Of a stretch of DNA of 64,000 nucleotides, positions 25,028 through 62,533 are shown piece by piece (position 1 is the stretch's first letter; each line of letters begins with the position of its first letter). The stretch is from Actinomycetota bacterium (lineage in GTDB: Bacteria; Actinomycetota; Acidimicrobiia; Acidimicrobiales; CADCSY01). Location of the stretch: contig JADDQY010000035.1 of the NCBI GenBank assembly GCA_016781135.1, forward strand, positions 17,764-81,763, given 5' to 3'. The position numbers and the translations under genes are program-made. Below the pieces are notes generated by a model. It was not told where the DNA came from, searched no databases, and worked only from the letters and a program-made list of their open reading frames with translations.

Positions 25028-25028
25028 C

Positions 25029-26619: not shown

Positions 26620-26634
26620 ACCGAGCGAGGTGCT

Positions 26635-27480: not shown

Positions 27481-27484
27481 ACGC

Positions 27485-29560: not shown

Positions 29561-30058
29561 ATGGATCAGTACCTGCCCCTGGTGGTGATGTTCGTGCTGG
29601 CCGTGGGCTTCGTGGTGCTGAGCATCGGCACCTCGAGGCTCCTGGCTCCCCGGCGGCCGACGCTGGCCAAGCAGGCGCCCTACGAGTGCGGGATCGTCCC
29701 GACTCGTGGACCGGCCCGGCGCTTTCCCGTGCGCTTCTACCTGGTGGCCATGATCTTCATCGTGTTCGACATCGAGATCATCTTCTTGTTCCCATGGGCC
29801 GTGCTGCACCGCCAACTCGGCCTCTACGGTCTGCTGGCGGTCGTGGTGTTCATCGTCCCGTTCTTCTTGTCGTTCCTGTGGGAGGTTGCCGAGGGCGGGC
29901 TCGACTGGGGCCCGATCGCACACCAACGGCCGCTCGGGCTGGCCAACGAGCCCGGCCGCACGACCACCTCGACCGTTCGCCTCGTCGGCCTCGACGGGCG
30001 TGAGCCGGTAGGGGCAGGGGTGGCGACGGGCGAGCAACGAGGCGGGGAGGCGAGCTGA
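29561..30058 (+). CDS. nuoA: NADH-quinone oxidoreductase subunit A (with ~45-aa C-terminal extension)
   Basis: [27 protein letters not shown]. Confidence 0.9.
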
Positions 30059-30621
30059 TGGGCCGGGGCGAGGGTCTCGGCGGGCTCCAGCACAACTTCC
30101 TCACCGGCAACCTCGAGGCCGCCGTCAAGTGGGCCCGGCGCAACAGCATGTGGCCCGCCACCTTCGGCCTGGCCTGCTGCGCGATCGAGATGATGGCCAC
30201 GGGTGCGTCGCACTTCGACCTCAGCCGCTTCGGGATGGAGGTGTTTCGGGCGTCGCCTCGTCAGGCCGACCTCATGATCGTGGCCGGGAGGGTGAGCCAG
30301 AAGATGGCGCCGGTGCTGCGCCAGGTCTACGACCAGATGGTGGAGCCCAAGTGGGTCCTGTCCATGGGGGTGTGTGCTTCCAGCGGAGGGATGTTCAACA
30401 ACTACGCCCTCGTCCAGGGCATCGACCAGGTGGTGCCGGTCGACGTCTACGCACCAGGGTGCCCGCCCAACCCCCAGACGTTGCTGCACTCGATCCTCAC
30501 GCTCCACGAGCTGGTCCGCACCGGCCAGATCCTGCGCCGTCCAGGGACCGGCGCCGGCATCCGAGTCGACGAGCAGGGGGGGGGCGAGCGGGTCCCGGTC
30601 CACGTCGCCACCCCGAGGTAG
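30058..30621 (+). CDS. nuoB: NADH-quinone oxidoreductase subunit B
   Basis: [19 protein letters not shown] and PGCPP (cluster N2 ligands). TGATG overlap with nuoA. Confidence 0.92.
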
Positions 30622-30632
30622 CGGCAACCTCG

Positions 30633-31121: not shown

Positions 31122-31128
31122 GGCGGCG

Positions 31129-32460
31129 ATGACCAGCACCGAGCGGGTGTACCCGGGGGCGATCACCTCCGAGGGGGCGCAGGAGCTGGCGGCGCGCGGC
31201 GCGTCCACGGCTGCGGAGCTCCTGCGGGAACAGGGCTCGGTTTTGCGCCTGTCCGAGGTGGCGGCCGCCGAGCAGGCGGACCGGGCCGGTCCCGAGGACG
31301 AGACCATGATCATCAACATGGGCCCGCAGCATCCGAGCACCCATGGCGTGCTGCGCGTGATGCTCGAGCTCGAGGGCGAGACGGTGCTGCGCACCAAGCC
31401 AATCATGGGCTACCTGCACACGGGGATGGAGAAGACCGGCGAGGACCTGACCTACCTGCAGGGCGCCACCAACGTCACCCGGATGGACTACGCCAGCCCG
31501 TTCTTCAACGAGCTGGTCTTCTCGCTCGCCACCGAGGCCCTGCTCGAGGTCGACATCCCGCCCCGGGCCACCTGGATCCGGATGCTGATGTGCGAGCTCA
31601 ACCGGATCTCGTCGCACTTCCTGTTCCTCGCCACCAACGGGATGGACCTGGGTGCCATCTCGATGATCCTCTATGGCTGGCGTGAGCGGGACATGGTGCT
31701 GCAGTTCTTCGAGAAGACGACCGGCTTGCGGATGAACCACAACTACGTCCGCCCCGGAGGGGTTGCCGTCGACCTGCCCGATGGCTGGCGCGATGACGTG
31801 CTGCGCCTCCTCGACGCCCTGCCGTCGCGGCTCGAGGAGTACGACGACCTGATGACCGGCCAGCCCATCTGGCGGGGCCGGACCCAGGGGATCGGCCTGC
31901 TCACCCCGGAGGAGGCGGTGGCGCTCGGCGCCACCGGGCCCATCCTGCGCTCCACCGGCGTTCCCTGGGACCTGCGCCGCGACCTGCCCTACCTCGCCTA
32001 CGACCAGGTCGACTTCAACGTGGTGGTGGGCAGCTACGGGGACGTGTTCGACCGCTACGCCATCCGCCTCAACGAGATCCGAGAGTCGATCGACATCGTC
32101 CGCCAGATCGTCGACCGCATGCCCGGAGGCGACTACCGCGTGCAGGACAGGAAGATCACCCCCCCGCCTCGGGCTCGGATCGACGAGTCGATGGAGGCGC
32201 TGATCCACCACTTCAAGATCTTCACGGAGGGCTTCCGGGTGCCCGAGGGCGAGGTCTACGTGGCGGTGGAGTCCCCCCGGGGTGAGTTGGGCTGCTACCT
32301 GGTGTCCGACGGGAGCGGCAAGCCCTACCGCCTCCACATCCGGGGCCCGTCGTTCTACAACCTGCAGACGCTGCCCCACATGATGCGCGGCGGTCTCATC
32401 CCTGACGCCGTGGCCGTCATCTCCTCGGTGGATCCGATCATGGGCGAGGTCGACCGGTGA
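31129..32460 (+). CDS. nuoD: NADH-quinone oxidoreductase subunit D
   Basis: 443 aa. NMGPQHPSTHGVLR, VTRMDYASPF and a C-terminal VDPIMGEVDR. Confidence 0.93.
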   Translation: MTSTERVYPGAITSEGAQELAARGASTAAELLREQGSVLRLSEVAAAEQADRAGPEDETMIINMGPQHPSTHGVLRVMLELEGETVLRTKPIMGYLHTGMEKTGEDLTYLQGATNVTRMDYASPFFNELVFSLATEALLEVDIPPRATWIRMLMCELNRISSHFLFLATNGMDLGAISMILYGWRERDMVLQFFEKTTGLRMNHNYVRPGGVAVDLPDGWRDDVLRLLDALPSRLEEYDDLMTGQPIWRGRTQGIGLLTPEEAVALGATGPILRSTGVPWDLRRDLPYLAYDQVDFNVVVGSYGDVFDRYAIRLNEIRESIDIVRQIVDRMPGGDYRVQDRKITPPPRARIDESMEALIHHFKIFTEGFRVPEGEVYVAVESPRGELGCYLVSDGSGKPYRLHIRGPSFYNLQTLPHMMRGGLIPDAVAVISSVDPIMGEVDR

Positions 32461-40018: not shown

Positions 40019-40025
40019 GGCGACG

Positions 40026-40331
40026 GTGACCGTCGACGAGACCTGGTACTTGGTGCTCTCGGCGCTGCTGTTCACGATCGGCGCCGCCGGGCTGCTGGTG
40101 CGGCGCAACCCCCTCGTGATGTTCATGTGCGTCGAGCTGATGCTCAACGCCGTGAACCTGACCTTCGTCACGTTCTCCAACGTGTTGAACGACGTCTCCG
40201 GCCAGGTGGTGGTCTTCTTCGTGCTCGTGGTGGCGGCTGCCGAGGTCGTCGTCGGCCTGGGCATCATCGTGGCCATCCTGCGCCGGCGCCCCGACGCCAC
40301 CGCCGACGACGTCTCGATGCTCCGAGGCTGA
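40026..40331 (+). CDS. nuoK: NADH-quinone oxidoreductase subunit K
   Basis: 101 aa. [31 protein letters not shown]. Confidence 0.9.
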
Positions 40332-40520
40332 GCGTTCGGCGCGGCCTGGACCTGCCATGCGGCTCAACCTGCGGCTGTCCCGCCTTGCCCAGGGAGTTCT
40401 TCGACATGTTCACCGACGCCCCCGATCGACCCGACCTGCGGCTCGGGCGATTCCCGGCACGCCCGGATATGCCGAGTTCACCGCGCCGGGCAGTGAGCCG
40501 AAGCCGGTGATGGGTGACTG

Positions 40521-41284: not shown

Positions 41285-41484
41285 TGGCCCAGGTGGTGCT
41301 GTGGGCCCTGCCCGGCGAATGGGAGCAGGTGGAGCTGTTCGCCCCGGACCTCGACGACCGGATCGCCACCCGAGTCCGGTCCAACGCCGCCGACTCAGGG
41401 TCAGACCAGGCAACGCCTCCTCCATCCTCCCCTGAGCGCCCGGTGCCGGCAGCGGCCCTCCACCGGCGAGCGGCGCTGCGGTAG
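41284..41484 (+). CDS. small hypothetical ORF (66 aa) preceding nuoL
   Basis: ATG 41284 overlaps TGA 41282..41284. Product MAQVVLWALPGEWEQVELFAPDLDDRIATRV.... Hand-counted GC3 about 83%. Ends 12 nt before nuoL. Confidence 0.3.
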   Translation: MAQVVLWALPGEWEQVELFAPDLDDRIATRVRSNAADSGSDQATPPPSSPERPVPAAALHRRAALR

Positions 41485-41496
41485 GGTCGGCCCGAG

Positions 41497-43449: not shown

Positions 43450-43451
43450 GG

Positions 43452-44981: not shown

Positions 44982-45000
44982 GGACGCATCGCTGCGGGGG

Positions 45001-46610: not shown

Positions 46611-46976
46611 GTGTCTGAGTTCCTGCGTGCCTACCTGACCGTGGCCGTGTTCGCCGGAGCCGCCGGCCTGCTGGTGCTGGCGTTGTCGACGGTGGGACGA
46701 CTCCTTCGCCCGTCCCGCCCCACTCGTGAGAAGGCCATCTCCTATGAGAGCGGCGTCGACCCGGTCGGGCCGGGGTTCGGCCAGAGCCAAGTCCGCTACT
46801 ACATCTTCGCCCTGCTGTTCGTGCTGTTCGACGTGGAGGCGGTCTACATCTTCCCCTGGGCGCTCCGGCTGGAGGAGTACGGTGGCTTCGGGCTGGTGGA
46901 AATGGCCATCTTCATCGTCATACTCGCTCTCGGACTGGTGTACGCCTGGCGGAAGGGAGTGCTGCGGTGGGTCTGA
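46611..46976 (+). CDS. nuoA2: NADH-quinone oxidoreductase subunit A, second copy
   Basis: 121 aa. [30 protein letters not shown]. Confidence 0.9.
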
Positions 46977-47467
46977 TCGAGCGGGGGAAGCTGCCCAAGC
47001 CCCTGAGCCACCTTCTCGGGCTCAGCCGTAGCTACTCGCTGTGGGTCTACCAGTGGGGGCTGGCCTGCTGCGCCATCGAGATGGGAGCGTGCTTCGGCTC
47101 GCCCCGCTACGACGTGATGCGCCTCGGCGTGATCCCGTTCCCCGTCAGCCCTCGCCAAGCCGACCTGGTCGTGGTCTCGGGCACGGTCACCGACAAGCTG
47201 GCTCCGGCCCTCCGCCGCCTCTACGAGCAGATGCCCGAGCCCAAGTACGTCATCTCCATGGGCAGCTGCGCGAACTCCGGTGGGCCCTACTGGGACTCCT
47301 ACTCGGTCACCAAAGGCGTCGACCAGATCATTCCCGTCGACGTGTACGTGCCCGGATGCCCGCCTCGGCCCGAAGCCCTGCTGGAGGGCATCGTGATGCT
47401 CCAGCAGCGCATCCGCGACGAGGACATGGCCGAGCGCTGGAAGGGAGACCCGATTGTCGTCGGCTGA
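46967..47467 (+). CDS. nuoB2: NADH-quinone oxidoreductase subunit B, second copy
   Basis: 166 aa. [24 protein letters not shown]. Confidence 0.9.
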
Positions 47468-48614
47468 GCCGGGGGCCGGGGACGATCCAGCCCGACGTCC
47501 CTCGCTGCCGGCGGAGGAGGTCACCGACCCGACGCTGCGGGCCGAGGTCGACAACCCGGCTGACGCCAACGTCCCGACCGGCGCTGAGGCTGCCCCGGGC
47601 GGAGGGACGAGCGCGGCCGACGCACCGCCGCTGCCCGCTGCCGGCGCCCCGGCTGAGCTCTCGAGCGAACAGACGCCCCCGCAGGGACAGCAGCGGGGTG
47701 CCGCCGGGCCGGACCAGGGGTTGGCCGACGTGGCCGGCGGCGACGCCGGGTCGCCGGAGAGCAGCGGCCACACCGGCACGGACCCGCCGGTGCCGGCTGC
47801 CCCGGCGAACCCGCCACCGGTCCAAGGGGGAGCCACCGTCCCGGAGCAGCCTCCGGCGACGCCTCGGGCCGTGGCCGCCGAGGGGGCGCTCGCCCGCCAG
47901 GCCAAGGCCGAGCAGGCTGACCAGGCGGCCGAGGCCGCCGCCGGCGCCGGGCTCGGGGAGGAACCGGATCCGGGGCTCGACCAGCCCCGCCGCGACCTGG
48001 TCGAGCGCCTCGGCACCGCCCTCGATGGCGGGGTGCTCGACGTGCACATCGTCCCCGGCGTCGATGTGTGGGTGCGGGTGGGCATCGACCACTGGCACCG
48101 GGCCTTCGAGGTGTGCCGCCACCACCTCGGGCTCACCTACTTCGACTTCCTCTCGGCCATCGACTGGCTGCCCTCGCCCTTCGGGCGGAGCGAGGACACC
48201 GGTACCGACGAGGACGCTGGCGCCGACGACCGGGCCGCCGGCCCCGGAGGCCCCGGCGAGCTCGAGCACGGGGTGACCGGGGGGAGCACCCGCTTCCAGC
48301 TGCTGGCCCGGCTGGTGTCGCCCACCAGCCACCTCGGGTTGACCCTCAAGGCCGACGTCGACGACGTCGAGCTCCGGGCGCCGACGGTCTCGGATCTCTA
48401 CCCCGGGGCCGACTGGCACGAGCGCGAGACGTGGGAGATGTACGGCATCGACTTCGTCGGGCACCCCAACCTCGTGCACCTCTACCTCCCGGGCGCGTTC
48501 GAGGGCCACCCGCTGCGCAAGGACTTCCCCCTCCTGGCCCGTGAGGTCAAGCCCTGGCCCGGGCTGGTCGACGTCGAGGCCATGCCCGGCGAAGCCGAAG
48601 CAGCGTCATCGTGA
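47454..48614 (+). CDS. nuoC2: NADH-quinone oxidoreductase subunit C, second copy, with ~185-aa disordered N-terminal extension
   Basis: 386 aa. The C-terminal domain has [18 protein letters not shown] and [10 protein letters not shown]. The N-terminus is Pro/Ala/Gly/Glu-rich but keeps high GC3. The TTG 47454 start is uncertain. Confidence 0.8.
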
Positions 48615-48630
48615 GGGCCACGCCGTGAGC

Positions 48631-49797
48631 ATGCTCACCGAACACCAGCAGCGGGCCTATATCGGCGGCCAGGCCGCCGAGGCCCGGGTCAACCTCGAGC
48701 TCGAGACCGACGGGATGACCCTCAACATCGGGCCCCAGCACCCGGCGACCCACGGCACGCTGCGCATCATCACCCGCCTCGACGGCGAGCAGGTGATCTC
48801 CGCCGAGCCGGTGATGGGCTACATGCACCGGGGCTACGAGAAGCTCACCGAGGTCCGTACGTACCCCCAGATCAACACCCTGATCAACCGCATCGACTGG
48901 CTCAGCAGCTTCGCCAACGAGGTGCCGTTCATCCTCGCCGCCGAGCGGCTCATGGAGATCGAGGCGCCACCCCGGGCGCAGTGGATCCGCACGATTTTCT
49001 TCGAGCTCAGCCGGATCGCCAACATCACCCTGTTCCTGGGCGAGATGGGCGTGCAGCTGGGCGCGATCACCGCGGTCTTCTACGCCTTCCGCGATCGGGA
49101 GCACGTGCTCAACCAGATCGAGGCGGCGACCGGGGGCCGCTTCCACCCGAACTACGACCGCATCGGGGGGCTGAAGGAAGACCTGCCCAAGGGGTGGGTG
49201 GCCGAGACCAAGTCGGTGATGGCCAAGGTGCGCGACTTCTGCGACGAGATGGAGACCTTGGTCGGCACCAACGAGATCTTCGAGACCCGCACCCGGGGCA
49301 TCGGGGTCATCCCCGTCGAGGTGGCCCTCGGCTACGGGCTGTCGGGGGCGAACATCCGGGCCTCCGGCCTCGACTGGGACCTGCGTCGCGACAGCGACAC
49401 CCCTCTGGCCTGGAAGGAGGTCGACTGGAAGGTCTGGACCCACCCCGACGGCGACAGCTTCGCCCGCTACTGGGTCCGCCTCCAAGAGACCCGGGAGGCG
49501 ACGCTGATCGTCGACCAGCTGCTCGACGGCCTGCCGGCGGGGCCGATCATGGCCAAGGTGCCCCGCATCATCAAGGTGCCGCCGGGGGAGGCGTGGGTCG
49601 CCACCGAGAACCCGCTCGGCGAGATGGGCTACTACCTCGTCAGCAAGGGCGACCTGGGCCCGTTCCGGGTCAAGATCCGCACGCCCTCGTTCAACAACAT
49701 CTCGATCGTCCCCTGGGTGCTCAAGGGCGTCTACGTTCCCGACGTGATCACCATCCTGGCCAGCCTCTACTTCATCCTCGGCGACATCGACCGATGA
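48631..49797 (+). CDS. nuoD2: NADH-quinone oxidoreductase subunit D, second copy
   Basis: 388 aa from ATG 48631 (or GTG 48625). NIGPQHPATHGTLR, INRIDWLSSF and a C-terminal [10 protein letters not shown]. Confidence 0.9.
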   Translation: MLTEHQQRAYIGGQAAEARVNLELETDGMTLNIGPQHPATHGTLRIITRLDGEQVISAEPVMGYMHRGYEKLTEVRTYPQINTLINRIDWLSSFANEVPFILAAERLMEIEAPPRAQWIRTIFFELSRIANITLFLGEMGVQLGAITAVFYAFRDREHVLNQIEAATGGRFHPNYDRIGGLKEDLPKGWVAETKSVMAKVRDFCDEMETLVGTNEIFETRTRGIGVIPVEVALGYGLSGANIRASGLDWDLRRDSDTPLAWKEVDWKVWTHPDGDSFARYWVRLQETREATLIVDQLLDGLPAGPIMAKVPRIIKVPPGEAWVATENPLGEMGYYLVSKGDLGPFRVKIRTPSFNNISIVPWVLKGVYVPDVITILASLYFILGDIDR

Positions 49798-49967
49798 GAG
49801 AAAACAGCGCGCCGAAGGCGCACGTTTGGCCTTTCTCGGCGGTCGAGCGGAACGGGGCAGCTGGACGGATGGCACCAAGGGGAGGGGCCCGCCCCGAGCG
49901 CCAGCGAGGGGTGAGAGGGGTCCCGCGTGATGACAGGACCCGTCCAGCGGTGGGGGTGGCAACGTGA
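49794..49967 (+). CDS. candidate relay small ORF (57 codons) bridging nuoD2 and nuoH2
   Basis: ATG 49794 forms an ATGA overlap with the nuoD2 stop (49795..49797). The frame is open to TGA 49965..49967, a GTGA overlap with the nuoH2 GTG at 49964. Product [57 protein letters not shown]. Confidence 0.3.
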
Positions 49968-50995
49968 CGCTCGCGCTGGAGCTCGCCTACTGGCAGCAGC
50001 TCGCCATCAAGGTCCTCGCCATCCTCGTCATCGTGCCCACGGCCACGGCCATCATCGTCCAGACCTTCCTCTTCAAGATGATGGCCCACATGCAGAGCCG
50101 GCTCGGCCCGATGGAGGCCGGCCCCCACGGCACCCTCCAGCTCATGGCCGACGGGGCCAAGTTCGTGCAGAAGGAGCTGCTGGCCCCGGCTCGGGCCGAC
50201 CGGCGGGTGTTCACCCTGGCCCCCGTGGTGGTGCTGCTGTCCACCTTCTTGTTGTTCGTGGTCATCCCCGCTGGTCCGGGCATCGTGGCCGAGAACCTCG
50301 ACCTCGGCATCTTCTTCGCCCTGGCGGTGTCGTCGATCTCGGTCCTCGGCGTGCTCATGGCCGGTTGGGCCTCGGCCAACAAGTACGCCCTCATGGGCGG
50401 GCTGCGGGCGGCCGGTCAGCTCATCGCCTACGAGCTGCCCCTGGTCCTGGCTGTGGTGGGGGTGGTCATCCAGGCAGGCGATCTCAGCCTGCAGGGCATC
50501 GTGCGGGCCCAGGCCGAGGGGGAGATCTTCGGCTTCGGGCTGATCGGTCTGCCGTTCGTGCTCACTCAGTTCCTCGGCTTCGCCCTGTTCCTGATCGCGA
50601 CCCAGGCCGAGCTCACTCAGCCTCCCTTCGACATGCCGGTGGCAGAGTCGGAGCTGGTGGCCGGCTTCCAGGTGGAGTACAGCGGCTTGCAGTTCCTCTA
50701 CTTCTACCTCGGCGAGTTCGGCGCCGCCTTCGCCTTCTCGGCGCTGGCCGCCACCATGTTCCTCGGCGGCTGGTGGGTCCCGGGGCTCGATCTCGAAGGC
50801 GGCCTGCTGGCGAACGTCGTGGGTCCGGTGGTGCTGTTCGCCAAGACGATGGCGGTCGCCTTCGTCATCTTCTGGATCCGCTTCACCTACCCTCGTCTGC
50901 GCGAGGACCAGCTCCAGAGCTTCGCCTGGAAGTACCTCATCCCCCTGTCGCTCGTGAACATCCTGGTGACAGGGGCGTTCAAGGTCATCTTCTAA
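49964..50995 (+). CDS. nuoH2: NADH-quinone oxidoreductase subunit H, second copy
   Basis: 343 aa. [20 protein letters not shown] and [16 protein letters not shown]. Confidence 0.9.
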
Positions 50996-51018
50996 CCGCT
51001 CGAGAGGAGGAACAGCCC

Positions 51019-51495
51019 ATGCCCGAGCTCCCCGGTCTGATGAAGGGCCTCAACGTGACCCTGCGCACCATGTTGCGCCCGGCGGTCACCACCCAGTACC
51101 CCCACGTGAAGGAGGCTCCTCCCAGCCGGGCGCGGGGGGTGATCGCCCTCAAGGAGGAGAACTGCACGGTGTGCATGCTCTGCGCCCGGCAGTGCCCGGT
51201 CTGGTGCATCTACATCGAGGGCCACAAGACCAAGGCGCCGCCACGGCGGGCCGGGGGCAAGCCCCGCACGGTGCAGTTGCTCGACCGCTTCGACATCGAC
51301 TACTCGCTGTGCATGTACTGCGGGATCTGCGTGGAGGTGTGCCCCTTCGACGCCCTGTTCTGGAGCCCCGAGTACGAGTACTCCGAGCCCCACATCGCCG
51401 ACCTGCTCCATGACAAGGACCGCCTGGGCCAGTGGATGGAGGCCGTCCCCGAACCGGAGCCGCTCGAGGCCGGCGCCGTGGCCAAGAAGAAGTAG
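51019..51495 (+). CDS. nuoI2: NADH-quinone oxidoreductase subunit I, second copy
   Basis: 158 aa from ATG 51019. SD GAGAGGAGG upstream. [12 protein letters not shown] and [12 protein letters not shown]. Confidence 0.9.
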
Positions 51496-51615
51496 AGCGG
51501 GTGCCGACCGGGCCTGGGCGACGCCGCCGACGACTGGCCGCGCCCCCGAAAGCGTGCAAAGGTTCGACGTGCAGCACGGGACCCTTGCACGAGAGGTAGA
51601 TCGGCGGTCTCATCC

Positions 51616-52134
51616 TTGATTGCCCAGAACATCGCCTTCACCATCCTCGCCGCGGTGGCCACGCTGGCCGCCGTGCGAGTGGTGACCACCCGCAACGTCG
51701 TCCACGCCGCCCTCTACCTGGTGATGGTGCTGGCCAGCGTGGGTGCGCTCTACGTGCTGCTGGTCGCCGAGTTCGTGGCCGCGGTGCAGATCCTGATCTA
51801 CATCGGCGCCATCGTCGTACTGTTCTTGTTCGGGATCATGCTCACCCGGGCCACGATCGGCGCCGACGCCGGCCTCGACAACGACCAGCGGTGGATCGCG
51901 GCGGTCACCGGGCTGTTCCTGCTCGGAGTGCTCACCTTCGTGCTGGTCGACGCCTTCGGCGACGACCGCCTGCCCAGTCTCGAGAACATGAGCCGTGAGG
52001 CGCTCACGGCCGAGCGAGGCACCGGCGCCGTGGGCGACGCCATCTTCTCCACCTATCTCGTCCCCTTCGAGGTGGTCTCGGTGCTCCTGCTCGCCGCCCT
52101 GGTCGGCGCCATCGTCCTGGCACGGAGGGAGTGA
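51616..52134 (+). CDS. nuoJ2: NADH-quinone oxidoreductase subunit J, second copy
   Basis: 172 aa. [36 protein letters not shown] start inferred by alignment with nuoJ. Confidence 0.85.
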   Translation: MIAQNIAFTILAAVATLAAVRVVTTRNVVHAALYLVMVLASVGALYVLLVAEFVAAVQILIYIGAIVVLFLFGIMLTRATIGADAGLDNDQRWIAAVTGLFLLGVLTFVLVDAFGDDRLPSLENMSREALTAERGTGAVGDAIFSTYLVPFEVVSVLLLAALVGAIVLARRE

Positions 52135-52214
52135 TGTCGTCGTTCGCTGCGCTCTCGTGCCTGACCGCCGACGTCCGACGGCCGCTGGCCACGCCGGTCG
52201 GGGAAGGAACCTGA
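52134..52214 (+). CDS. candidate relay small ORF (26 codons) bridging nuoJ2 and nuoK2
   Basis: ATG 52134 overlaps the nuoJ2 TGA (52132..52134). TGA 52212..52214 overlaps the nuoK2 ATG (52214). Product MSSFAALSCLTADVRRPLATPVGEGT. Confidence 0.3.
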   Translation: MSSFAALSCLTADVRRPLATPVGEGT

Positions 52215-52522
52215 TGCTGGTCAACCAGTTCCTGCTGCTCGGGGCCGTGCTGTTCTGCGTCGGGGTCTACGGCGTGCTCGCCCGGCGCAACGGCGTGCTC
52301 GTGCTCATGTCCATCGAGCTCATCCTCAACGCCGTCAACATCAACCTGCTGGCCCTGGGGTCGCTCCAGGGGCCGCAGGCGGCGGTGGTCGGGCAGGTCT
52401 TCGCCCTGTTCGTGATCACCATCGCCGCCGCCGAGGTGGGCGTTGGCCTGGCCATCGTGCTGCTCATCTACCGCAACCGCCACTCGGTCGACCTCGACGA
52501 GGTCGACCTCATGAAGGGGTAG
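52214..52522 (+). CDS. nuoK2: NADH-quinone oxidoreductase subunit K, second copy
   Basis: 102 aa from ATG 52214. RRNGVLVLMSIELILNAVNINL, AAAEVGVGLAI. Confidence 0.9.
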   Translation: MLVNQFLLLGAVLFCVGVYGVLARRNGVLVLMSIELILNAVNINLLALGSLQGPQAAVVGQVFALFVITIAAAEVGVGLAIVLLIYRNRHSVDLDEVDLMKG

Positions 52523-52531
52523 CGGCAGGCG

Positions 52532-54718
52532 GTGCTCGAGAACGCCTGGATCATCCCTGCGATCACGTTCGCCTCGTTCTGGCTGATCCTGTTCCTCGGC
52601 AAGCGCCTTCCCAAGCACGGTGCCGAGATCGGCATCGCCGCCGTGGGAGCCGCCTTCGTGCTTTCGTGCGTCGCCGTTGCCCAGTGGATCGACCGCCCGG
52701 CGACCGAGATGGTCACGGCGGCCACCGGCGCCGGGGAGGAGCACGGCGGGGCCGGCGAGGAGCACGGCGCCGAGCCCGAAGAACACGGCGGAGCCGGCGA
52801 GGAGCACGGCGCCAAGCCCGAACAGGAGGCAGGCCACGCCCTCGGCCAGGTCCGGATCCTCGCTGCCGAGGCGGACGGCGAGCACGGGGAGGAGGCCGAG
52901 CACGAGGTTGAGCCCATCCGGGCCGCGGTGGAGCGCAACGTCACGTGGTTCTCGATCGGCGGCATCGACGTCACCGTGGGCACCGCCGTCGACGGCCTGA
53001 CCGTGGTGATGTTGTTCACGGTCACGATGATCTCGCTGCTGGTGCACGTCTTTTCGACCAACTACATGCACGGTGACGTTCGTTTCACCTACTTCTTCGC
53101 CGCCCTGTCGCTGTTCACCACCGGGATGCTGCTGCTGGTGGTCTCGAGCAGCACCCTCCAGGCCCTCTTCGGCTGGGAGCTCATGGCCGTGTGCAGCTTC
53201 ATGCTGATCGGCCACTGGTGGGAGAAGAAGGAGAACTCCAACGCCGCCATGAAGGCGTTCCTCACCACCCGGACGGGAGACGTCGGGCTGCTGGTGGGCA
53301 TCGTCACGTTGTTCTTTGCCGCTGGCCAGACCTTCGACATCGCCCGGATCAACGAGGCGGCGTTGAGCCGAGGAGTGCCCCAGACCGCGCTGGTGGTGGG
53401 CGCGGCCGCCTTGCTCATCGGGGTGATCGGCAAGTCGGCCCAGTTCCCGCTGCACACCTGGCTCCCCGACGCCATGGCCGGCCCCACCCCGGTGTCGGCC
53501 CTGATCCACGCCGCCACCATGGTGGTGGCCGGCGTCTACCTCGTGGCTCGCCTCTACGGGGTGTTCTGGTCGGCGTTCGACATCGGAGCAGGCGGCGCCA
53601 ACCCCGTCGCCATCGTCGGCGGCATCACCATCCTCATCGCCGCCGCCCTGGCCTTCGTGCAGCGCGACATCAAGAAGGTGCTCGCCTACTCCACGGTGAG
53701 CCAGCTGGGGTACATGGTCATGGCGCTGGGGGTGGGGGCGTGGACGGCGGGCATCTTCCACCTCTTCACCCATGCCTTCTTCAAGGGACTCCTCTTCCTC
53801 GGCGCCGGTTCGGTGAGCCACGCCGTCCACAGCTTCGACATGAAGGCCGACATGGGCGGGTTGCGCAAGTACATGCCGACGACCTTCGCCACCTTTCTGA
53901 TCGGCTCGCTGGCCCTGGCCGGGCTGCCGCCGCTCGCCGGGTTCTGGTCCAAGGACGAGATCCTCCTCGGTGCCGCCGAGAACGGCTACCGGTTCTTCGA
54001 GGTCCTCGGCCTCGTGGGCGCGTTCATGACCGCCGCCTACATGACCCGCTGCGTCTACCTCACGTTCTTCGGGGAATACCGGGGCCACGGGCATCCTCAC
54101 GAGTCGCCGCCGGCGATCACCGTGCCTCTGGCGGTGCTGGCGGTGTTCTCGGTCGGAGCCGGCTTTCTCAACGCCCCCGGGTTCGAGCTGTTCGGCACGC
54201 TCACCGAGAACCGGGTGTACCTCCGGGCCGGCGTGCCCCATCACCCGTTCGAGGTGTTCCCAGCGGTGGTGTCGACCGTGGTGGTGCTGGCGGCGCTGGC
54301 CCTCGGCTACCTGCTGTTCTTCCAGCGGCGCCTTCCCCGTGGGGTCACCAGCCGCAACCCTGCCGCCCGGGCCGGCTACGGCCTGCTCGTCAACAAGTAC
54401 TACCTCGACCACCTCTACACCGGGGTCATCGTCGGGTCGGTCAAGGGGGCCATTGCCCGAGGCGCGTACTGGATCAACCAGAAGGTGATCGACGGGGTGG
54501 TCAACGGGATCGGGATCGCCTCCAAGCGCGCCGGCGGCTGGGTCTACCGCCACGTCGACCAGGAGGTGGTCGACGGTGCGGTGAACGGCGCCGGGTTCGG
54601 CGCCGAGGGCTTCGGGGGCATCCTGCGCACGATCCAGACGGGCCGGGTGCAGCAGTACGGTGCCCTGCTGTTCGGCGCCACCGCGGTGCTGGCGCTCGGC
54701 CTGGTCATCTTCGTCTAA
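52532..54718 (+). CDS. nuoL2: NADH-quinone oxidoreductase subunit L, second copy (728 aa, His/Glu-rich loop insertion)
   Basis: GKSAQFPLHTWLPDAMAGPTPVSALIHAATMV and VLAYSTVSQLGYM. A roughly 65-aa acidic EEHG-repeat insertion lies between TM2 and TM3. Confidence 0.9.
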   Translation: MLENAWIIPAITFASFWLILFLGKRLPKHGAEIGIAAVGAAFVLSCVAVAQWIDRPATEMVTAATGAGEEHGGAGEEHGAEPEEHGGAGEEHGAKPEQEAGHALGQVRILAAEADGEHGEEAEHEVEPIRAAVERNVTWFSIGGIDVTVGTAVDGLTVVMLFTVTMISLLVHVFSTNYMHGDVRFTYFFAALSLFTTGMLLLVVSSSTLQALFGWELMAVCSFMLIGHWWEKKENSNAAMKAFLTTRTGDVGLLVGIVTLFFAAGQTFDIARINEAALSRGVPQTALVVGAAALLIGVIGKSAQFPLHTWLPDAMAGPTPVSALIHAATMVVAGVYLVARLYGVFWSAFDIGAGGANPVAIVGGITILIAAALAFVQRDIKKVLAYSTVSQLGYMVMALGVGAWTAGIFHLFTHAFFKGLLFLGAGSVSHAVHSFDMKADMGGLRKYMPTTFATFLIGSLALAGLPPLAGFWSKDEILLGAAENGYRFFEVLGLVGAFMTAAYMTRCVYLTFFGEYRGHGHPHESPPAITVPLAVLAVFSVGAGFLNAPGFELFGTLTENRVYLRAGVPHHPFEVFPAVVSTVVVLAALALGYLLFFQRRLPRGVTSRNPAARAGYGLLVNKYYLDHLYTGVIVGSVKGAIARGAYWINQKVIDGVVNGIGIASKRAGGWVYRHVDQEVVDGAVNGAGFGAEGFGGILRTIQTGRVQQYGALLFGATAVLALGLVIFV
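52730..52831 (+). repeat. in-frame tandem repeat encoding (G)AGEEHG(A/G)xPE units in nuoL2
   Basis: Two adjacent 42-nt units (52748..52789 and 52790..52831) differ at a few positions. They are preceded by a partial unit. Translation: GAGEEHGGAGEEHGAEPEEHGGAGEEHGAKPEQE. Confidence 0.8.
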
Positions 54719-54746
54719 CCGTCGAACGGGGGAGTGGGAAACGCAC

Positions 54747-56273
54747 ATGGACGCCCTGGATGACCTGGCGCTGACCGCGGCGGTGTTCCTTCCCCTTGTG
54801 GGAGCGGTGGTGATGCTGCTCACTCCCCGCCGGCAGGAGACCGTCCACAAGGTGATCGCCTTGCTCACCACCCTGGCGACCTTCGCCGTCGGGGTCTACG
54901 TGCTCGTGCGGTTCGACTACCGCCGGGCCGACCTGTTGCAGTTCAACGTGAACGCGTCGTGGATCGACGTCATCAACAGCCGGTACATCCTCGGCGTCGA
55001 CGGCATCTCCCTGCCGCTTCTGATCCTGTCGATGTTCGTGTGCGTGCTGGTGGTGATCTACAGCTGGAACCACTTCCCCGAGCCCCACAACCCCAAGGCG
55101 TTCCTCCTCCTCGTCCTGGTGCTGGAGACAGGGATGAACGGGACCTTCGTGGCCCAGGACCTGATCCTGTTCTTCGTGTTCTTCGAGGTCGTGCTGTTGC
55201 CGATGTACTTCATGATCGGGGTGTGGGGCGGTGAGCAGCGCCAGTACGCCGCCATCAAGTTCTTCCTGTTCACCCTGTTCGGATCGGCGCTCATGATCCT
55301 CAGCTTCCTGGCCCTGTTCTTCCGCGGTGGTCAGACCTTCGCCATCCAAGAGCTCATTGCCGTGGCGTCCGACACCATCCCCCGCTCGACCCAGCTGCTG
55401 ATCTTCGGCGGCCTGTTCATGGGTTTCGCCATCAAGGTCCCGATGTTCCCGTTCCACACCTGGCTGCCTGACGCCCACACCCAGGCCCCGACCCAGGGCT
55501 CGGTGATCCTCGCCGCCATCCTGCTGAAGCTCGGCACCTACGGGTTCGTGCGCATCGCCATCCCCATCCTCCCCGAGGCTGCCCGGGTGTGGGCCCCGTG
55601 GATCGGTGGCCTCGCCGTCATCGGCATCATCTACGGCGCTCTCGGATGCCTGGCCCAGAGCGACATGAAGCGGCTCATCGCCTTCTCGTCGGTGGCCCAC
55701 ATGGGCTACGTCATGCTTGGCATCGCCACCCTCACCGACTTCGGGATCAACGCCGCCGTCTTCGGGATGGTCGCCCACGGCCTCATCACCGGGATGCTCT
55801 TCTTCGTGGCCGGATCGGTGAAGGACCGGTTCCACACGCTCGAGCTCTCCCGCCTCGGTGGCCTGCTGATCCAGGCGCCGCGCATGGGCTGGATCCTCGG
55901 CTTCTGCGCCATGGCCTCGCTCGGCCTGCCCGGCCTCGCCGGGTTCTGGGGCGAGTTCCCGGCGATCCTCGCCGCCTACAACCCCGCTCCAGGGCTGTCC
56001 CGGGAGCTGTTCCGGGTGTACATGGTGGTCGCCGCCATCGGCACCGTCTTCGCCGCCGGCTACCTGCTGTGGATGCTCCAGCGAGCCGCCTTCGGCACCC
56101 CCACCAAGGAGTTCGCCGGCCACCCCATCCCCGACATGCGCTGGCCCGAGTACCTGGCCTGGACGCCGATGCTCCTGCTCATCGTGGTGCTGGGCATCTT
56201 CCCCAACCTGTTGTTCGGGTTGACCAACCGCGCCGTCGACACTGCACTCGCTGCCTTCGGCGGGGGTGGCTGA
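54747..56273 (+). CDS. nuoM2: NADH-quinone oxidoreductase subunit M, second copy
   Basis: 508 aa from ATG 54747. FEVVLLPMYFMIGVWG, KVPMFPFHTWLPDAHTQAPTQGSVILAAI and LIAFSSVAHMG. Confidence 0.9.
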   Translation: MDALDDLALTAAVFLPLVGAVVMLLTPRRQETVHKVIALLTTLATFAVGVYVLVRFDYRRADLLQFNVNASWIDVINSRYILGVDGISLPLLILSMFVCVLVVIYSWNHFPEPHNPKAFLLLVLVLETGMNGTFVAQDLILFFVFFEVVLLPMYFMIGVWGGEQRQYAAIKFFLFTLFGSALMILSFLALFFRGGQTFAIQELIAVASDTIPRSTQLLIFGGLFMGFAIKVPMFPFHTWLPDAHTQAPTQGSVILAAILLKLGTYGFVRIAIPILPEAARVWAPWIGGLAVIGIIYGALGCLAQSDMKRLIAFSSVAHMGYVMLGIATLTDFGINAAVFGMVAHGLITGMLFFVAGSVKDRFHTLELSRLGGLLIQAPRMGWILGFCAMASLGLPGLAGFWGEFPAILAAYNPAPGLSRELFRVYMVVAAIGTVFAAGYLLWMLQRAAFGTPTKEFAGHPIPDMRWPEYLAWTPMLLLIVVLGIFPNLLFGLTNRAVDTALAAFGGGG

Positions 56274-56314
56274 TGACTCGTTTTCTCCCGCCTGATCCGG
56301 CCGAGGGTGACTGA
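56273..56314 (+). CDS. candidate relay mini-ORF (13 codons) between nuoM2 and nuoN2
   Basis: ATG 56273 overlaps the nuoM2 TGA (56271..56273). Product MTRFLPPDPAEGD. TGA 56312..56314 lies 1 nt before the in-frame nuoN2 GTG at 56316 and inside the alternative start at 56307. Confidence 0.25.
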   Translation: MTRFLPPDPAEGD

Positions 56315-57821
56315 GGTGGAGCCCGTGTTCAGCGCGCCCACGGTCGACTTCCACGCCTTTGGACCGGAGATCGTCCTCGTGGTCGTGCTGGGCGTGCTGT
56401 TGCTGGTCGACCTCGTCTTCGAAGAGCGTGCTCGCTGGGCCTCCTCGACCATCGCCGGGATCGGGCTGCTCGCCGCCCTGGTGCCGGTCCTCACCCTGGC
56501 CATCGACGGCGGCGACCGGACCCTGTTCGGGGGGGCCTACGTCGTCGACAACTTCGCCCTGGTGCTCAAGGGCTTGTTCCTGGTGGCGGGGTACGTCACC
56601 GTGCTCATCAGCACCGACTACATCGGCGACGGCGACTACTACGAGGGCGAGTACTACTTCATGCTGCTGTCGTCGTTGCTGGGCATGACCGTCATGGCGT
56701 CCGCCCGCGACCTGCTGAGCATCTTCGTGGCCCTCGAGCTGCTGTCGATTCCCGCCTACCTGCTGGCCGGATGGCGCAAGCGCGATCTACGGGGCAACGA
56801 GGCCTCGCTGAAGTACTACCTGCTCGGGGTGTTCGCCTCGGCGGTGATGCTCTACGGGATGTCACTGGTGTTCGGTGTGGCCGGCTCCACGCTGCTGTCC
56901 GATGTCGGCGCCGCCGTGTCCAGAGGGCCTCGCTCGGCGCCGGTCATCACCGTGGGGATCGTGTTCATCGTCGTCGGCTTCGCCTTCAAGGTCTCGGCGG
57001 TGCCGTTCCACACCTGGGCCCCCGACACCTACGAAGGCGCCCCCACCCCGATCACGGCCTTCTTGTCGGTGGCCTCCAAAGCCGCCGGCTTCGTGGCCCT
57101 GGTGCAGTTGGTGTTCATCGGCTTCCTCGGTCGTGACGACGTGTGGGCCCCCATGTTCTGGGTGCTCGCCGCTGTCACCATGACCGTCGGCAACCTCATC
57201 GCCCTGCGCCAGACCAACGTCGTGCGCCTCCTCGCCTACTCCTCGGTGGCCCAGGCCGGGTTCATCCTGGCCCCCTTCGCCGTCGCTGCCGACATCCCCG
57301 CTGCCCGGGGTGGCGTGGGCTCGGCCACCGGCGCGGTCGTCACCTACCTGTTGATCTACTCGGCCATGAACCTGGGAGCTTTCGCCGTGGTCATGGCCGT
57401 CGCCCGCAAGACCCGCTCCGGGGAGATCGCGTCCTACGGCGGGCTGTTCCAGTACGCGCCGGGGCTGACCGTGCTCATGACCATCTTCTTGTTCGCCCTG
57501 GCCGGGATCCCGCCCCTCGCCGGGTGGTACGCCAAGTTCGTGGTGTTCAAGTCGCTGCTCGACGCCGGGACGGCAGCCGCCATCGCCCTCGCCGTGGTCG
57601 GCGTGGTCAACTCGGTGATCGGGCTCTTCTACTACGCCTCGGTGGCTCGGGAGATGTGGATGAGCCCGGTGCCCGACGGTCAGGAGGTCACGCCCGTCCG
57701 GGTCCCCGCCGCCTTGGGTGCCAGCCTGGCCCTGTGCGCGGCGGCGACACTCGCCATCGGCGTCGTTCCCAACCTCGTCGCCCGCCTCGGAAACCTGGCC
57801 CTGTTCGGGGCGCTCCCGTAA
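56307..57821 (+). CDS. nuoN2: NADH-quinone oxidoreductase subunit N, second copy
   Basis: 504 aa. LELLSIPAYLLAG, FKVSAVPFHTWAPDTYEGAPTPITAF, LLAYSSVAQAGF. Start GTG 56307 or GTG 56316. Confidence 0.9.
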   Translation: MTEVEPVFSAPTVDFHAFGPEIVLVVVLGVLLLVDLVFEERARWASSTIAGIGLLAALVPVLTLAIDGGDRTLFGGAYVVDNFALVLKGLFLVAGYVTVLISTDYIGDGDYYEGEYYFMLLSSLLGMTVMASARDLLSIFVALELLSIPAYLLAGWRKRDLRGNEASLKYYLLGVFASAVMLYGMSLVFGVAGSTLLSDVGAAVSRGPRSAPVITVGIVFIVVGFAFKVSAVPFHTWAPDTYEGAPTPITAFLSVASKAAGFVALVQLVFIGFLGRDDVWAPMFWVLAAVTMTVGNLIALRQTNVVRLLAYSSVAQAGFILAPFAVAADIPAARGGVGSATGAVVTYLLIYSAMNLGAFAVVMAVARKTRSGEIASYGGLFQYAPGLTVLMTIFLFALAGIPPLAGWYAKFVVFKSLLDAGTAAAIALAVVGVVNSVIGLFYYASVAREMWMSPVPDGQEVTPVRVPAALGASLALCAAATLAIGVVPNLVARLGNLALFGALP

Positions 57822-57854
57822 CCGCTCGCTCACCGCTCGTCCACCATCGGAACC

Positions 57855-59045
57855 GTGGTCGGCGACGTGATCAATCGCCAGGGGCCACTGCGGTTCGACG
57901 AGTTCCTGGAGTTGGCGCTGTACGGTCCCGACGGCTTCTACGCCCGTGGCCGCGGCGCCGGGCGCCGGGGTGACTTCCTCACCAGTCCCGAGGTGGGCCC
58001 GCTGTTCGGGGCGGTGGTGGCCCGGGCCCTCGACGTCGAGTGGCGGGGACAGGGGCAGCCCGACCCCTTCGTGGTGGTGGAAGCCGGCGCCGGGCGAGGG
58101 CAGCTGGCCCGCAGCCTGCTTGACGCCAACCCCGCCTGCGCCGGCTCCCTGCGCTACGTCTGCGTCGAGCGGTCGCCCACGTTGCGGGCGGCGGCCACGG
58201 CCGTCCTCCACCCCGAGCCGGCGACGATGCTCCTCGGGCCCGTCGTCGGCGCCGACGAGGAGCTTCGGGTCCTTCCCGGTCGAGGCCCGCTGGTGGCCGT
58301 GGTCGAGGAGCTGCCGGCGACGGTCGGTGTGCACGCCGTGCTGGCCAACGAGCTGCTCGACAACCTCCCGTTCCGGCTGCTCCAGCGACACGAGCACGGG
58401 TGGGGCGAGGTGTTCGTCGGCATGAACGCGGACGGCGCGCTGGGTGAGCTTCTCGTTGACGCCGCCCCCGGCGTCGCCGCCGAAGCCGATCGCCTTGCCC
58501 CCGACGCTCCCTCCGGCGCCCGGATCCCGCTGCAGCACGCGGCGGTCAACTGGCTGAGGCGGGCCCTCGCCCTGGTCGTGCGGGGGCGGGTGGTGGTCAT
58601 CGACTACGCCGACACCACCGCCGGCCTCGCCCTTCGCCCGTGGCACCATTGGACCCGTACCTATCGGGCCCACGGCCGGGGCGGGGCGCCCCTCGACACC
58701 CCTGGGAGCCAGGACGTGACCTGCGAGGTGGCGGTCGACCAGCTGGCGGCGGCCGTCGGCCGGCCCGACGGCGATCGGTCCCAGGCGGAGTGGCTCGCCT
58801 CCCACGGGATCGACGAGCTGGTGGCTGCCGCCCGCTCCACCTGGCACGAGCGGGCCCACCTGGGCGACCTGGCAGCGCTGGCGGCCCGGAGCAGGGTCGG
58901 GGAGGCCGAGGCCCTGTGCGACCCCGGCGGCCTGGGCACCTTCCGGGTCCTCGAGTGGCTCCTCCCCCGTGGTGGTGGTGGGGCCGCCGGCATCTCCGCC
59001 GGCGTCGGCCACCAGGACCGGAGTGGGGCGGAGGGGGATCGGTGA
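57855..59045 (+). CDS. MidA/NDUFAF7-like SAM-dependent methyltransferase (DUF185 family)
   Basis: 396 aa. LRFDEFLELALYGPDGFY, GDFLTSPEVGPLFG and VVEAGAGRGQLA (SAM motif I). Begins 33 nt after nuoN2. Confidence 0.7.
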   Translation: MVGDVINRQGPLRFDEFLELALYGPDGFYARGRGAGRRGDFLTSPEVGPLFGAVVARALDVEWRGQGQPDPFVVVEAGAGRGQLARSLLDANPACAGSLRYVCVERSPTLRAAATAVLHPEPATMLLGPVVGADEELRVLPGRGPLVAVVEELPATVGVHAVLANELLDNLPFRLLQRHEHGWGEVFVGMNADGALGELLVDAAPGVAAEADRLAPDAPSGARIPLQHAAVNWLRRALALVVRGRVVVIDYADTTAGLALRPWHHWTRTYRAHGRGGAPLDTPGSQDVTCEVAVDQLAAAVGRPDGDRSQAEWLASHGIDELVAAARSTWHERAHLGDLAALAARSRVGEAEALCDPGGLGTFRVLEWLLPRGGGGAAGISAGVGHQDRSGAEGDR

Positions 59046-60487
59046 GCACCCGAGGAGCGGGAGCACTGGTGTTCGCCACCTCGGCGGCGGTGCTGGTGCT
59101 CGAGATCCTCGCCGGGCGGATGGTGGCCCCCTACGTGGGGGTGTCGATCGAGACCTTCACCGGGGTGATCGGCACCGTGCTGGCCGGCATCGCGCTCGGG
59201 GCCGCCGCCGGCGGTCGCCTGGCGGACCGCCGGTCGCCGCGGCTGCTGGTCGGCCCGGCCGTCGTCGCCGGAGGGGTGCTGGCCCTGATGTCGGTGCCAG
59301 TGGTGTCGCTGCTGGGGCCGGCGGTGGCGGGCGGGGGACCGCTCGCCATCGTGGTGCTGGCGGCCGGCGCCTTCTTCGCCCCCGCCGCCGTCCTGAGCGC
59401 GGTCAGCCCGATGGCGGCCAAGCTGCGCCTGGCCAGCCTGGCCGAGACCGGGTCGGTGGTGGGGGGCCTGTCGGCCGCGGGCACGGCCGGGGCACTGTTC
59501 GGCACGTTCCTCACCGGCTTCGTGCTGGTGGTCGCCGTGCCCACCCGGCCGCTGGTGATCGCCCTCGGTGTCGCCCTCATCCTCGCCGGCGGGCTGCTGT
59601 GCTGGCGGCTGGCAGGCCGTCTGCCGAGCGGGGGGGCGGTCGCGACCGTGCTGGTCGCAGCCAGCGCTGCCTCGCTCTCACCGAGCCCGTGTCAGGTCCA
59701 CACCACCTACTACTGCGCCCAGGTCCAGGTCGACCCCAGCCGTTCGACCGGCCGGGTGCTGCTGCTCGACAACCTTCGCCACAGCTACGTCGACCTGGCC
59801 GACCCGACCCATCTGGAGTTCCGCTACGTCCGGCTCCTGGCCGACGTGGTCGGGGCCGAGCACCCCCCGGGGCGACCGGTCGACGCCCTCCATCTCGGCG
59901 GGGGCGGCTTCACGTTTCCTCGGTACCTCGATGCCACCCGGCCTGGCTCGACCAGCCTGGTGCTCGAGCTCGACCCCGGCCTGGTCGCGCTCGCCGCCGA
60001 CGAGCTCGGCCTGCGCACCGACGCTGACCTGCGTGTGGAGGTGGGCGACGCCCGGACGGCACTGGCCGAGCTGGCCACCGACGCCTTCGACGTGGTCGTC
60101 GGCGACGCCTTCGGCGGCCTGTCGGTGCCCTGGCACCTGGCCACCGTGGAGGTGGCCGAGGAGCTGGCCCGGGTCCTGCGTCCCGAAGGGGTCTACGCGG
60201 TCAACGTGATCGACGGGGGACCCGACCGCCTCGTGCGAGCCGAGGCCGCCACCCTCGGCGACGTGTTCGAGCACGTGGCGGTCATCGCTCCGCCCTCCGG
60301 TACGGGCGACACCCCCGCCAACCACGTCCTCGTGGCGTCACAGGAGCCCCTCGCCCTCGGTCCCGACGACGTCGGCGTCGGCGACGGCGTGGTGCTCACC
60401 GGGCCCGACGTCGACGCCTTCGTCGCCGGGGCCCGACCTCTCACTGACGACTTCGCCCCCGCCGACCAGCTCCTCACCCGCCGGTGA
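59042..60487 (+). CDS. fused polytopic membrane domain / spermidine synthase-like methyltransferase
   Basis: 481 aa from GTG 59042, a GTGA overlap with the midA-like stop. About 7 N-terminal TM helices. The C-terminal domain has HLGGGGFTFPRY, LELDPGLV, VVGDAFGG and VLRPEGVYAVN. Confidence 0.7.
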   Translation: MSTRGAGALVFATSAAVLVLEILAGRMVAPYVGVSIETFTGVIGTVLAGIALGAAAGGRLADRRSPRLLVGPAVVAGGVLALMSVPVVSLLGPAVAGGGPLAIVVLAAGAFFAPAAVLSAVSPMAAKLRLASLAETGSVVGGLSAAGTAGALFGTFLTGFVLVVAVPTRPLVIALGVALILAGGLLCWRLAGRLPSGGAVATVLVAASAASLSPSPCQVHTTYYCAQVQVDPSRSTGRVLLLDNLRHSYVDLADPTHLEFRYVRLLADVVGAEHPPGRPVDALHLGGGGFTFPRYLDATRPGSTSLVLELDPGLVALAADELGLRTDADLRVEVGDARTALAELATDAFDVVVGDAFGGLSVPWHLATVEVAEELARVLRPEGVYAVNVIDGGPDRLVRAEAATLGDVFEHVAVIAPPSGTGDTPANHVLVASQEPLALGPDDVGVGDGVVLTGPDVDAFVAGARPLTDDFAPADQLLTRR

Positions 60488-60547
60488 CCCTGCCCGGCTC
60501 TGGCCGGGCCTGGCGCCGCCTCCGTGGCCGTGCCCGAGCCTGCCACC

Positions 60548-60553
60548 TAACCT
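60548..60553 (+). promoter_or_regulatory. candidate -10 hexamer TAACCT; acs would be leaderless
   Basis: TAACCT-CGGTGC-ATG, with exactly 6 nt to ATG 60560. A CCCGGC-TCTG-GCCGGG hairpin sits upstream, after the preceding gene. Confidence 0.35.
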
Positions 60554-60559
60554 CGGTGC

Positions 60560-62533
<1,974 letters not shown>

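Follow-up and report, generated by a model that had tools for sequence, protein, structure and literature searches.

A MidA-family methyltransferase gene at the end of the 11-gene nuo operon of Acidimicrobiia and a candidate target arginine in the NuoD of that operon

The 64-kb window analyzed here (the whole stretch of DNA under study, from contig JADDQY010000035.1 of assembly GCA_016781135.1) has a guanine-plus-cytosine (GC) content of ~70%, and its best protein matches come from metagenome-assembled genomes of Acidimicrobiales and other Actinomycetota. It carries two nuo operons for complex I-type enzymes head to tail, with 68 nt between the end of nuoN (46542) and the start of nuoA2 (46611). 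The first, nuo1, is a canonical 14-gene operon, and the second, nuo2, has 11 genes and no nuoE, nuoF or nuoG. Directly behind nuo2 lies a gene for a MidA/NDUFAF7-family S-adenosylmethionine (SAM)-dependent methyltransferase, the midA-like gene that is our subject. We propose that its product probably methylates an arginine of NuoD2 next to iron–sulfur cluster N2 while the 11-subunit complex matures; the NuoD of the sister operon has threonine at this position. The genes on which this proposal turns are as follows.

29561-46542, directly before nuo2: nuo1, canonical 14-gene nuo operon with nuoE, nuoF and nuoG
46611..57821, + strand: nuo2, operon of 11 genes without nuoE/F/G, with a Pfam match for each subunit (NuoI2 by NCBIfam)
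46611-46976, + strand: nuoA2
46967-47467, + strand: nuoB2, homolog of PSST/NDUFS7 with the N2 cysteines present
47454-48614, + strand: nuoC2
48541-49797, + strand: nuoD2
49964-50995, + strand: nuoH2
51019-51495, + strand: nuoI2, recognized by NCBIfam
51616-52134, + strand: nuoJ2
about 52214-52522, + strand: nuoK2
52532-54718, + strand: nuoL2
54660-56273, + strand: nuoM2, given as its longest open reading frame (ORF)
56307-57821, + strand: nuoN2, stop codon TAA at 57819-57821
57855..59045, + strand: midA-like gene, GTG start, 396 amino acids, PF02636/COG1565 MidA/NDUFAF7-family SAM-dependent methyltransferase

The nuo2 operon encodes subunits A, B, C, D, H, I, J, K, L, M and N without E, F and G, which is the gene content by which Moparthi and Hagerhall define the 11-subunit ‘ancestral-type’ complex I-like enzymes. 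No electron-donor module was identified within the operon; F420 has been suggested for Actinomarinales (PMC7771536). Because the stop codon of nuoN2 occupies 57819-57821 and the midA-like gene starts at 57855 on the same strand, the two are separated by exactly 33 nt, the distance that an earlier note on this DNA had given for a gene following a second complex I operon without an NADH module. The midA-like gene is probably co-transcribed with nuo2 as its trailing gene. A scan of 56000-61000 for sigma-70 promoters and intrinsic terminators found no site between nuoN2 and midA, a null result that counts for little because the host is a 70% GC actinobacterium.

The product of the midA-like gene belongs to the PF02636/COG1565 MidA/NDUFAF7 family. 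The earlier note had assigned it to MidA/DUF185 from its letters, and the profile hidden Markov model check now bears this out: PF02636 (Methyltransf_28, formerly DUF185) matches with an E value of 3.2e-32 and 112.4 bits (cut-off 23.3), spanning residues 55-301 of the protein and profile positions 2-237 of 249. A profile search of the PDB found only three solved proteins by sequence, namely a Burkholderia COG1565 protein (4f3n, 7.5e-32), Dictyostelium MidA/NDUFAF7 (5ztz, 4.4e-23) and the R. palustris DUF185 protein (1zkd, 2.4e-22). We also built an AlphaFold (AF2) model from an alignment of 26 homologs, which has a predicted local distance difference test score (pLDDT) of 84.3 and a low-confidence, Gly/Ala-rich tail at residues 374-396. 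Its six best Foldseek matches in the PDB (4g67, 5ztz, 5zu0, 4f3n, and chains A and B of 1zkd) are all COG1565/MidA structures, with template-modeling (TM) scores of 0.67-0.71 over ~390 columns, and the seventh-ranked match drops to 0.32. The sequence matches and the Foldseek matches are exactly the same solved family members, which makes the assignment secure; the Joint Genome Institute (JGI) annotation of these Acidimicrobiia proteins is likewise ‘MidA family methyltransferase’. The ORF has a third-position GC of 0.90.

Both motifs that the earlier note had singled out, GDFLTSPEV and VVEAGAGRGQLA (SAM-binding motif I, E-x-G-x-G-x-G), are present in the protein. Residues D40, F41, T43, P45, E46, E76, G78, G80 and G82 are invariant among the Acidimicrobiia, R. 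palustris, Burkholderia and Dictyostelium sequences compared, and all 26 Acidimicrobiia MidA sequences strictly keep the SAM-binding motif and the other family-invariant residues. This strict conservation argues for retained catalysis.

The family has a well-defined mitochondrial target. In the 49-kDa subunit from cattle (NDUFS2), the dimethylated residue is Arg85, which lies within the tryptic peptide KCDPHIGLLHRGTEK and in an HRGxE motif (PMC3750175; PMC8042128), and NDUFAF7 is the enzyme responsible for this NDUFS2 arginine dimethylation in human cells (PMC3829151; PMC9006661). The same modification, a symmetric dimethylarginine, occurs in a bacterial protein, Nqo4 of Paracoccus denitrificans (PMC3750175). 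Three positions in the window bear on whether the two NuoD paralogs could be modified in this way.

48826..48843, + strand: HRGYEK motif of NuoD2, with the Arg codon at 48829-48831, equivalent of NDUFS2 Arg85 and predicted methylation site
31417..31434, + strand: HTGMEK motif of NuoD1 (nuo1), with a Thr codon at 31420-31422 where NuoD2 has Arg
30058..30621, + strand: NuoB1 (nuo1), with Arg in IVAGRVSQK at the position of Thermus Nqo6 Arg83

A motif search and a pairwise comparison of the two NuoD proteins set GYLHTGMEK in NuoD1 against GYMHRGYEK in NuoD2. The arginine-bearing string is found in all 49 NuoD2 orthologs that cover the region. Among representatives of 50%-identity clusters, which mix lineages and only partly isolate the Acidimicrobiia NuoD1 orthologs, the close NuoD1 relatives all read GYLHTGMEKTGE or GYLHTGMEKTAE, that is, Thr. 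With threonine at this site, NuoD1 cannot be arginine-methylated there. Thermus Nqo4 also has Thr at this position (PMC3750175; PMC8042128), and in the Thermus enzyme Nqo6-R83 fills the space of NDUFS2-R121 (PMC8042128).

The NuoB subunits show the matching change. NuoB1 has an arginine at the position of Thermus Nqo6 Arg83, a placement obtained by aligning it with chain 6 of 2fug, in the numbering of that chain, and with M. smegmatis 8e9g_B. NuoB2 instead has the Thr of VSGTVTDK, which aligns with VAGTLTNK of mouse NDUFS7 and so gives the mitochondrial configuration; this Thr is kept in 16 of the 16 NuoB2 orthologs covering the region. The solved structure nearest to NuoB2 is mitochondrial NDUFS7 (mouse, E value of 1.7e-53), ahead of the Thermus and Mycobacterium NuoB proteins. 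The two operons thus differ by a reciprocal swap, with NuoB1 Arg and NuoD1 Thr in nuo1, and NuoB2 Thr and NuoD2 Arg in nuo2. Judged from these sequences, the N2 site of nuo1 is of the Thermus type, with no arginine to methylate, and that of nuo2 is of the mitochondrial/Paracoccus type. The reciprocal swap predicts that the 11-subunit complex is the only client of the methylase.

These comparisons change the substrate argument of the earlier note in two ways. It had held that both NuoD paralogs keep the target arginine, pointing to VTRMDY in NuoD1 and INRIDW in NuoD2; at the true HRGxE site only NuoD2 does, NuoD1 having Thr. The two strings do exist, and we rejected them as the methylation site, because they lie 20 residues past the HRGxE arginine, the offset expected for Yarrowia R141, which is a different second-sphere residue of N2. 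The by-eye alignment behind them was wrong, and they are not the site methylated by NDUFAF7. Placing the target at the correct residue makes the case for NuoD2-specific methylation more specific, and the earlier suggestion that the enzyme may be specific to the complex without an NADH module gains strength from the differences between the paralogs.

Two further features of NuoD2 were noted. A segment of ~25 residues of NuoD1 (residues 345-369) is missing from NuoD2 when 48628-49797 is compared with 31129-32460. The best full-length NCBIfam alignment of NuoD2 is to NF008974, a 366-residue NuoD model, at 401.5 bits, below the curated cut-off of 522.

We surveyed gene order around this junction from both sides. 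The first survey comprised 80 species-level genome loci chosen by MidA similarity (49-69% identity), nearly all from Acidimicrobiia. In all 77 usable loci, those with enough upstream DNA, nuoN2 lies upstream of midA on the same strand, with a gap of at most 200 nt in 67 cases (median 48 nt). As far as their flanks extend, the loci show the full B2-C2-D2-H2...N2 order, this nuo2 order being common to loci L001-L083, and nuoH2 directly follows nuoD2 in all loci covering that stretch. The junction on the other side of midA is looser: only 25 of 65 loci have the acetyl-CoA synthetase gene acs, which is the usual downstream neighbor in relatives, within 300 nt, and variable insertions separate the two otherwise. 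The second survey took 80 metagenome loci chosen by NuoN2 similarity (58-77% identity), of which 68 had the at least 600 nt of downstream DNA that made them usable. Here midA lies downstream of nuoN2 on the same strand in 64, and within 300 nt in 62 of these. The linkage of nuo2 and midA is strong in Acidimicrobiia, and it is neither absolute nor universal.

From the family, the conserved SAM-binding motif, the operon position and the target motif, we infer an active enzyme whose most likely substrate is the arginine of GYMHRGYEK in NuoD2. By analogy with mitochondria and Paracoccus, the MidA-like protein would act on free or early-assembly NuoD2 and would symmetrically dimethylate the equivalent of NDUFS2 Arg85. 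The methylated NuoD2 might then dock better onto NuoB2, and the environment of N2 would be shaped in the process, with possible effects on assembly or on the N2 potential; the parallel is NDUFAF7, which acts on NDUFS2 before NDUFS2 joins NDUFS7. The canonical 14-subunit enzyme of the same cell would need no methylation step, having what looks like the Thermus solution of a NuoD1 Thr and a NuoB1 arginine. More tentatively, the two complex I-type enzymes of Acidimicrobiia may solve the problem of placing an arginine beside N2 differently, the NADH-dependent enzyme with an unmodified NuoB arginine and the 11-subunit enzyme with a NuoD arginine dimethylated by its own operon-encoded MidA. Of these two statements we hold the first, methylation of NuoD2, to be reasonably probable, and the second only a possibility.

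Several observations weigh against NuoD2 methylation by this protein. Its identity to characterized or solved relatives is only 26-35%, and no NCBIfam model matched at an E value of 0.01 or better, although this reflects library coverage and does not define the family. The corresponding arginine of E. coli is present yet unmethylated (PMC3750175), so the residue alone does not ensure methylation. In seven loci of the first survey, 0.9-3.5 kb is inserted between nuoN2 and midA; two of these insertions are a two-component system of an OmpR-type response regulator and a HAMP histidine kinase (L023 8001-9977; L075 8000-9971), and in both loci midA directly follows the inserted kinase gene. In the second survey, midA is absent within 4 kb downstream of nuoN2 in two loci, L146, where an MGMT/Schlafen-domain gene (3110-4294) follows nuoN2 instead, and L166, where genes for an Fpg-type glycosylase, a short-chain dehydrogenase and a sulfatase (5510-8936) do so. 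None of five alpha-proteobacterial midA homologs (L084-L088) has a nuo gene nearby; all five lie in an lgt-midA-Cu-oxidase_4 (YfiH/PgeF-like) triad, often with overlapping stop and start codons. Linkage to nuo is therefore not a property of the family, since it is missing from these five contexts in alpha-proteobacteria, where the modification is documented. The adjacency that the earlier note had looked to in other genomes thus holds for Acidimicrobiia, in both directions of search, and fails for the five alpha-proteobacterial homologs. Finally, every locus of the two surveys comes from a single class, and the synteny is in part owed to common descent and not to independent events.

Most of these points would also fit a genuine COG1565 methyltransferase with a substrate other than NuoD2, such as a different subunit of Nuo2, some other protein or a small molecule, whose position is gene order inherited within one class, with no functional coupling to nuo2. 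The restriction of the surveys to Acidimicrobiia, the broad synteny of the whole nuo2-midA-(x)-acs neighborhood, the different conserved triad (lgt-midA-pgeF) around the alpha-proteobacterial homologs, the identity of only 26% to characterized MidA and the two nuoN2 loci without a downstream midA all speak for it. Against it stands a nuoN2-midA junction kept far tighter than that of midA and acs (67 of 77 loci within 200 nt, as opposed to 25 of 65 within 300 nt) down to 49% MidA identity. The NuoD of the partner operon also has the exact target arginine, which the other paralog does not, and NuoB changes reciprocally; moreover, the HRGxE arginine is the sole experimentally established substrate of the family (PMC3750175; PMC9006661). 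We regard a different substrate as a serious but distinctly less likely explanation.

We consider it improbable that the protein serves mainly as a non-catalytic chaperone in the assembly of the 11-subunit complex, binding NuoD2 without methylation being the essential step. NDUFAF7 and MidA do bind NDUFS2 directly at an early assembly step (PMC9006661), and the operon position is compatible with any assembly role, but the SAM-binding motif and family-invariant residues would not be expected to persist in 26 of 26 Acidimicrobiia sequences, and the Dictyostelium knockout is not rescued by a methyltransferase-deficient mutant (reviewed in PMC9006661). We regard as very improbable a role in methylating nucleic acid (DNA), which has been tentatively suggested for the MidA of Wolbachia. 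In E. coli expressing that protein, the N4-methylcytosine (m4C) and N6-methyladenine (m6A) calls are sparse, amounting to just 166 bases that share no recognition motif, and their authors describe them as preliminary (PMC12455994). The fold here matches the protein arginine methyltransferase MidA and not DNA methyltransferases, and the gene adjoins no restriction or DNA-related gene but holds a conserved spot inside a respiratory operon.

The genes that follow midA in the window are listed below.

59042..60487, + strand: fused major facilitator superfamily (MFS)/spermidine-synthase family gene, NCBIfam NF037959 at an E value of 5.7e-94
60560..62533, + strand: acetyl-CoA synthetase gene (acs), Pfam ACAS_N, AMP-binding and AMP-binding_C

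The GTG start of the MFS/spermidine-synthase gene overlaps the midA stop in a GTGA (sequence at 59040-59045), an overlap that makes translational coupling of the two genes likely. This gene occupies the spot only in the closest relatives (L003, L004, L005, L020 and L026); in the others, acs or different genes come after midA. We ranked a functional tie of midA to either neighbor low, given that the acs junction is variable and the MFS/spermidine-synthase gene is restricted to the closest relatives. An H+-pyrophosphatase gene also lies downstream of midA, on the opposite strand.

Directly before nuo1, 24611-28681 encodes a 4Fe-4S ferredoxin, a cytochrome b split into one ORF for its N-terminal and one for its C-terminal part, a Rieske protein and a dihaem cytochrome c, and GC dips to 0.67 at 24001-26000. 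Ahead of this respiratory cluster, 18184-21828 carries the pentose-phosphate genes for a 6-phosphogluconate dehydrogenase-like protein, glucose-6-phosphate dehydrogenase and 6-phosphogluconolactonase. Within nuo2, NuoC2 has a Pro/Ala/Gly-rich N-terminal extension of ~200 residues (47454-48090), and its Complex1_30kDa Pfam match begins at residue 214; the NuoC2 ortholog of L003 is of similar length (380 amino acids), and those of L001 and L002 have only 237-243.

Much of the setting has been reported before: the enzyme family and the arginine modification are known, the latter also from a bacterium, and the synteny has been described for one Acidimicrobiia order. The newness that the earlier note implied for a bacterial maturation step therefore does not stand, in view of the Paracoccus Nqo4 modification, the alpha-proteobacterial proposal and the synteny in a 2021 preprint, both described below. 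Our analysis adds the breadth of the nuo2-midA linkage across Acidimicrobiia, its absence from the five alpha-proteobacterial contexts examined and the reciprocal NuoD/NuoB Arg-Thr swap. The paralog-specific target logic appears to be new, as we found no such statement in the literature searched. The gain is incremental and brings no new principle, but it offers a testable system. The dimethylarginine beside N2 may serve assembly, redox tuning or both, the modification being hard to separate from the residue in mitochondria (PMC8042128). Acidimicrobiia present a natural experiment in one cell, with one complex that has a methylase, a NuoD arginine and a mitochondrial-type NuoB, and a sister complex with neither the methylase target nor that type of NuoB. 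At its size, the system should lend itself to heterologous reconstruction in E. coli, whose own NuoCD arginine stays unmethylated. The locus also gives genomic-context support, outside Proteobacteria, for bacterial DUF185 proteins acting on complex I. If the two enzymes indeed place the arginine beside N2 in different ways, as tentatively suggested above, its dimethylation would not be a proteobacterial or mitochondrial specialty; it would instead characterize an older complex I lineage of Gram-positive bacteria that lacks the NADH module, and it might serve to adjust the N2 potential to another electron donor as well.

Compared with the NDUFAF7/MidA proteins of human and Dictyostelium, the present protein shares PF02636, the two-domain fold (TM ~0.70 to 5ztz) and the GDFxTxPE and ExGxGxG motifs, and the adjoining operon encodes a NuoD with the HRGxE arginine and a NuoB with the Thr of mitochondrial type. 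It differs in being only 26% identical to Dictyostelium MidA, in having its gene within the very operon for the complex that it presumably modifies and in its presumed client, an 11-subunit enzyme without the NADH-oxidizing module in place of canonical complex I. The best match in both sequence and structure is the Burkholderia thailandensis COG1565 protein (4f3n/4g67; E value of 7.5e-32, TM of 0.70, 35% identity), a structural-genomics target whose function its depositors give only as ‘likely methyltransferase’.

Alpha-proteobacterial MidA proteins, such as that of R. palustris (1zkd, 31% identity), are bacterial members of the same family and have been proposed to methylate NuoD (PMC9006661), and the symmetrically dimethylated NuoD arginine of P. 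denitrificans Nqo4 is the bacterial precedent for the maturation step. Unlike the gene described here, theirs lie in the lgt-midA-Cu-oxidase_4 string, and their presumed target is a single canonical 14-subunit complex I. The closest parallel comes from Ca. Actinomarinales of the same class, which have two nuo clusters, one of them without EFG (PMC7771536). A preprint reports in this order a conserved string of an 11-subunit complex I operon, NDUFAF7 (K18164/PF02636), htpX and pspE, in which its authors read NDUFAF7 as an accessory assembly component; the retrieved passages of the preprint make no statement on a target residue or on paralog specificity (bioRxiv 10.1101/2021.02.01.429150). As far as those passages describe it, the string resembles the present locus in having nuoABCDHIJKLMN followed by the K18164/PF02636 gene, with a full 14-subunit nuo cluster close by, and differs in having heliorhodopsin and an iron ATP-binding cassette (ABC) transporter before the operon and htpX and pspE after it. 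The locus described here instead has its two nuo operons directly in tandem, followed, after midA, by the fused MFS/spermidine-synthase gene and acs.

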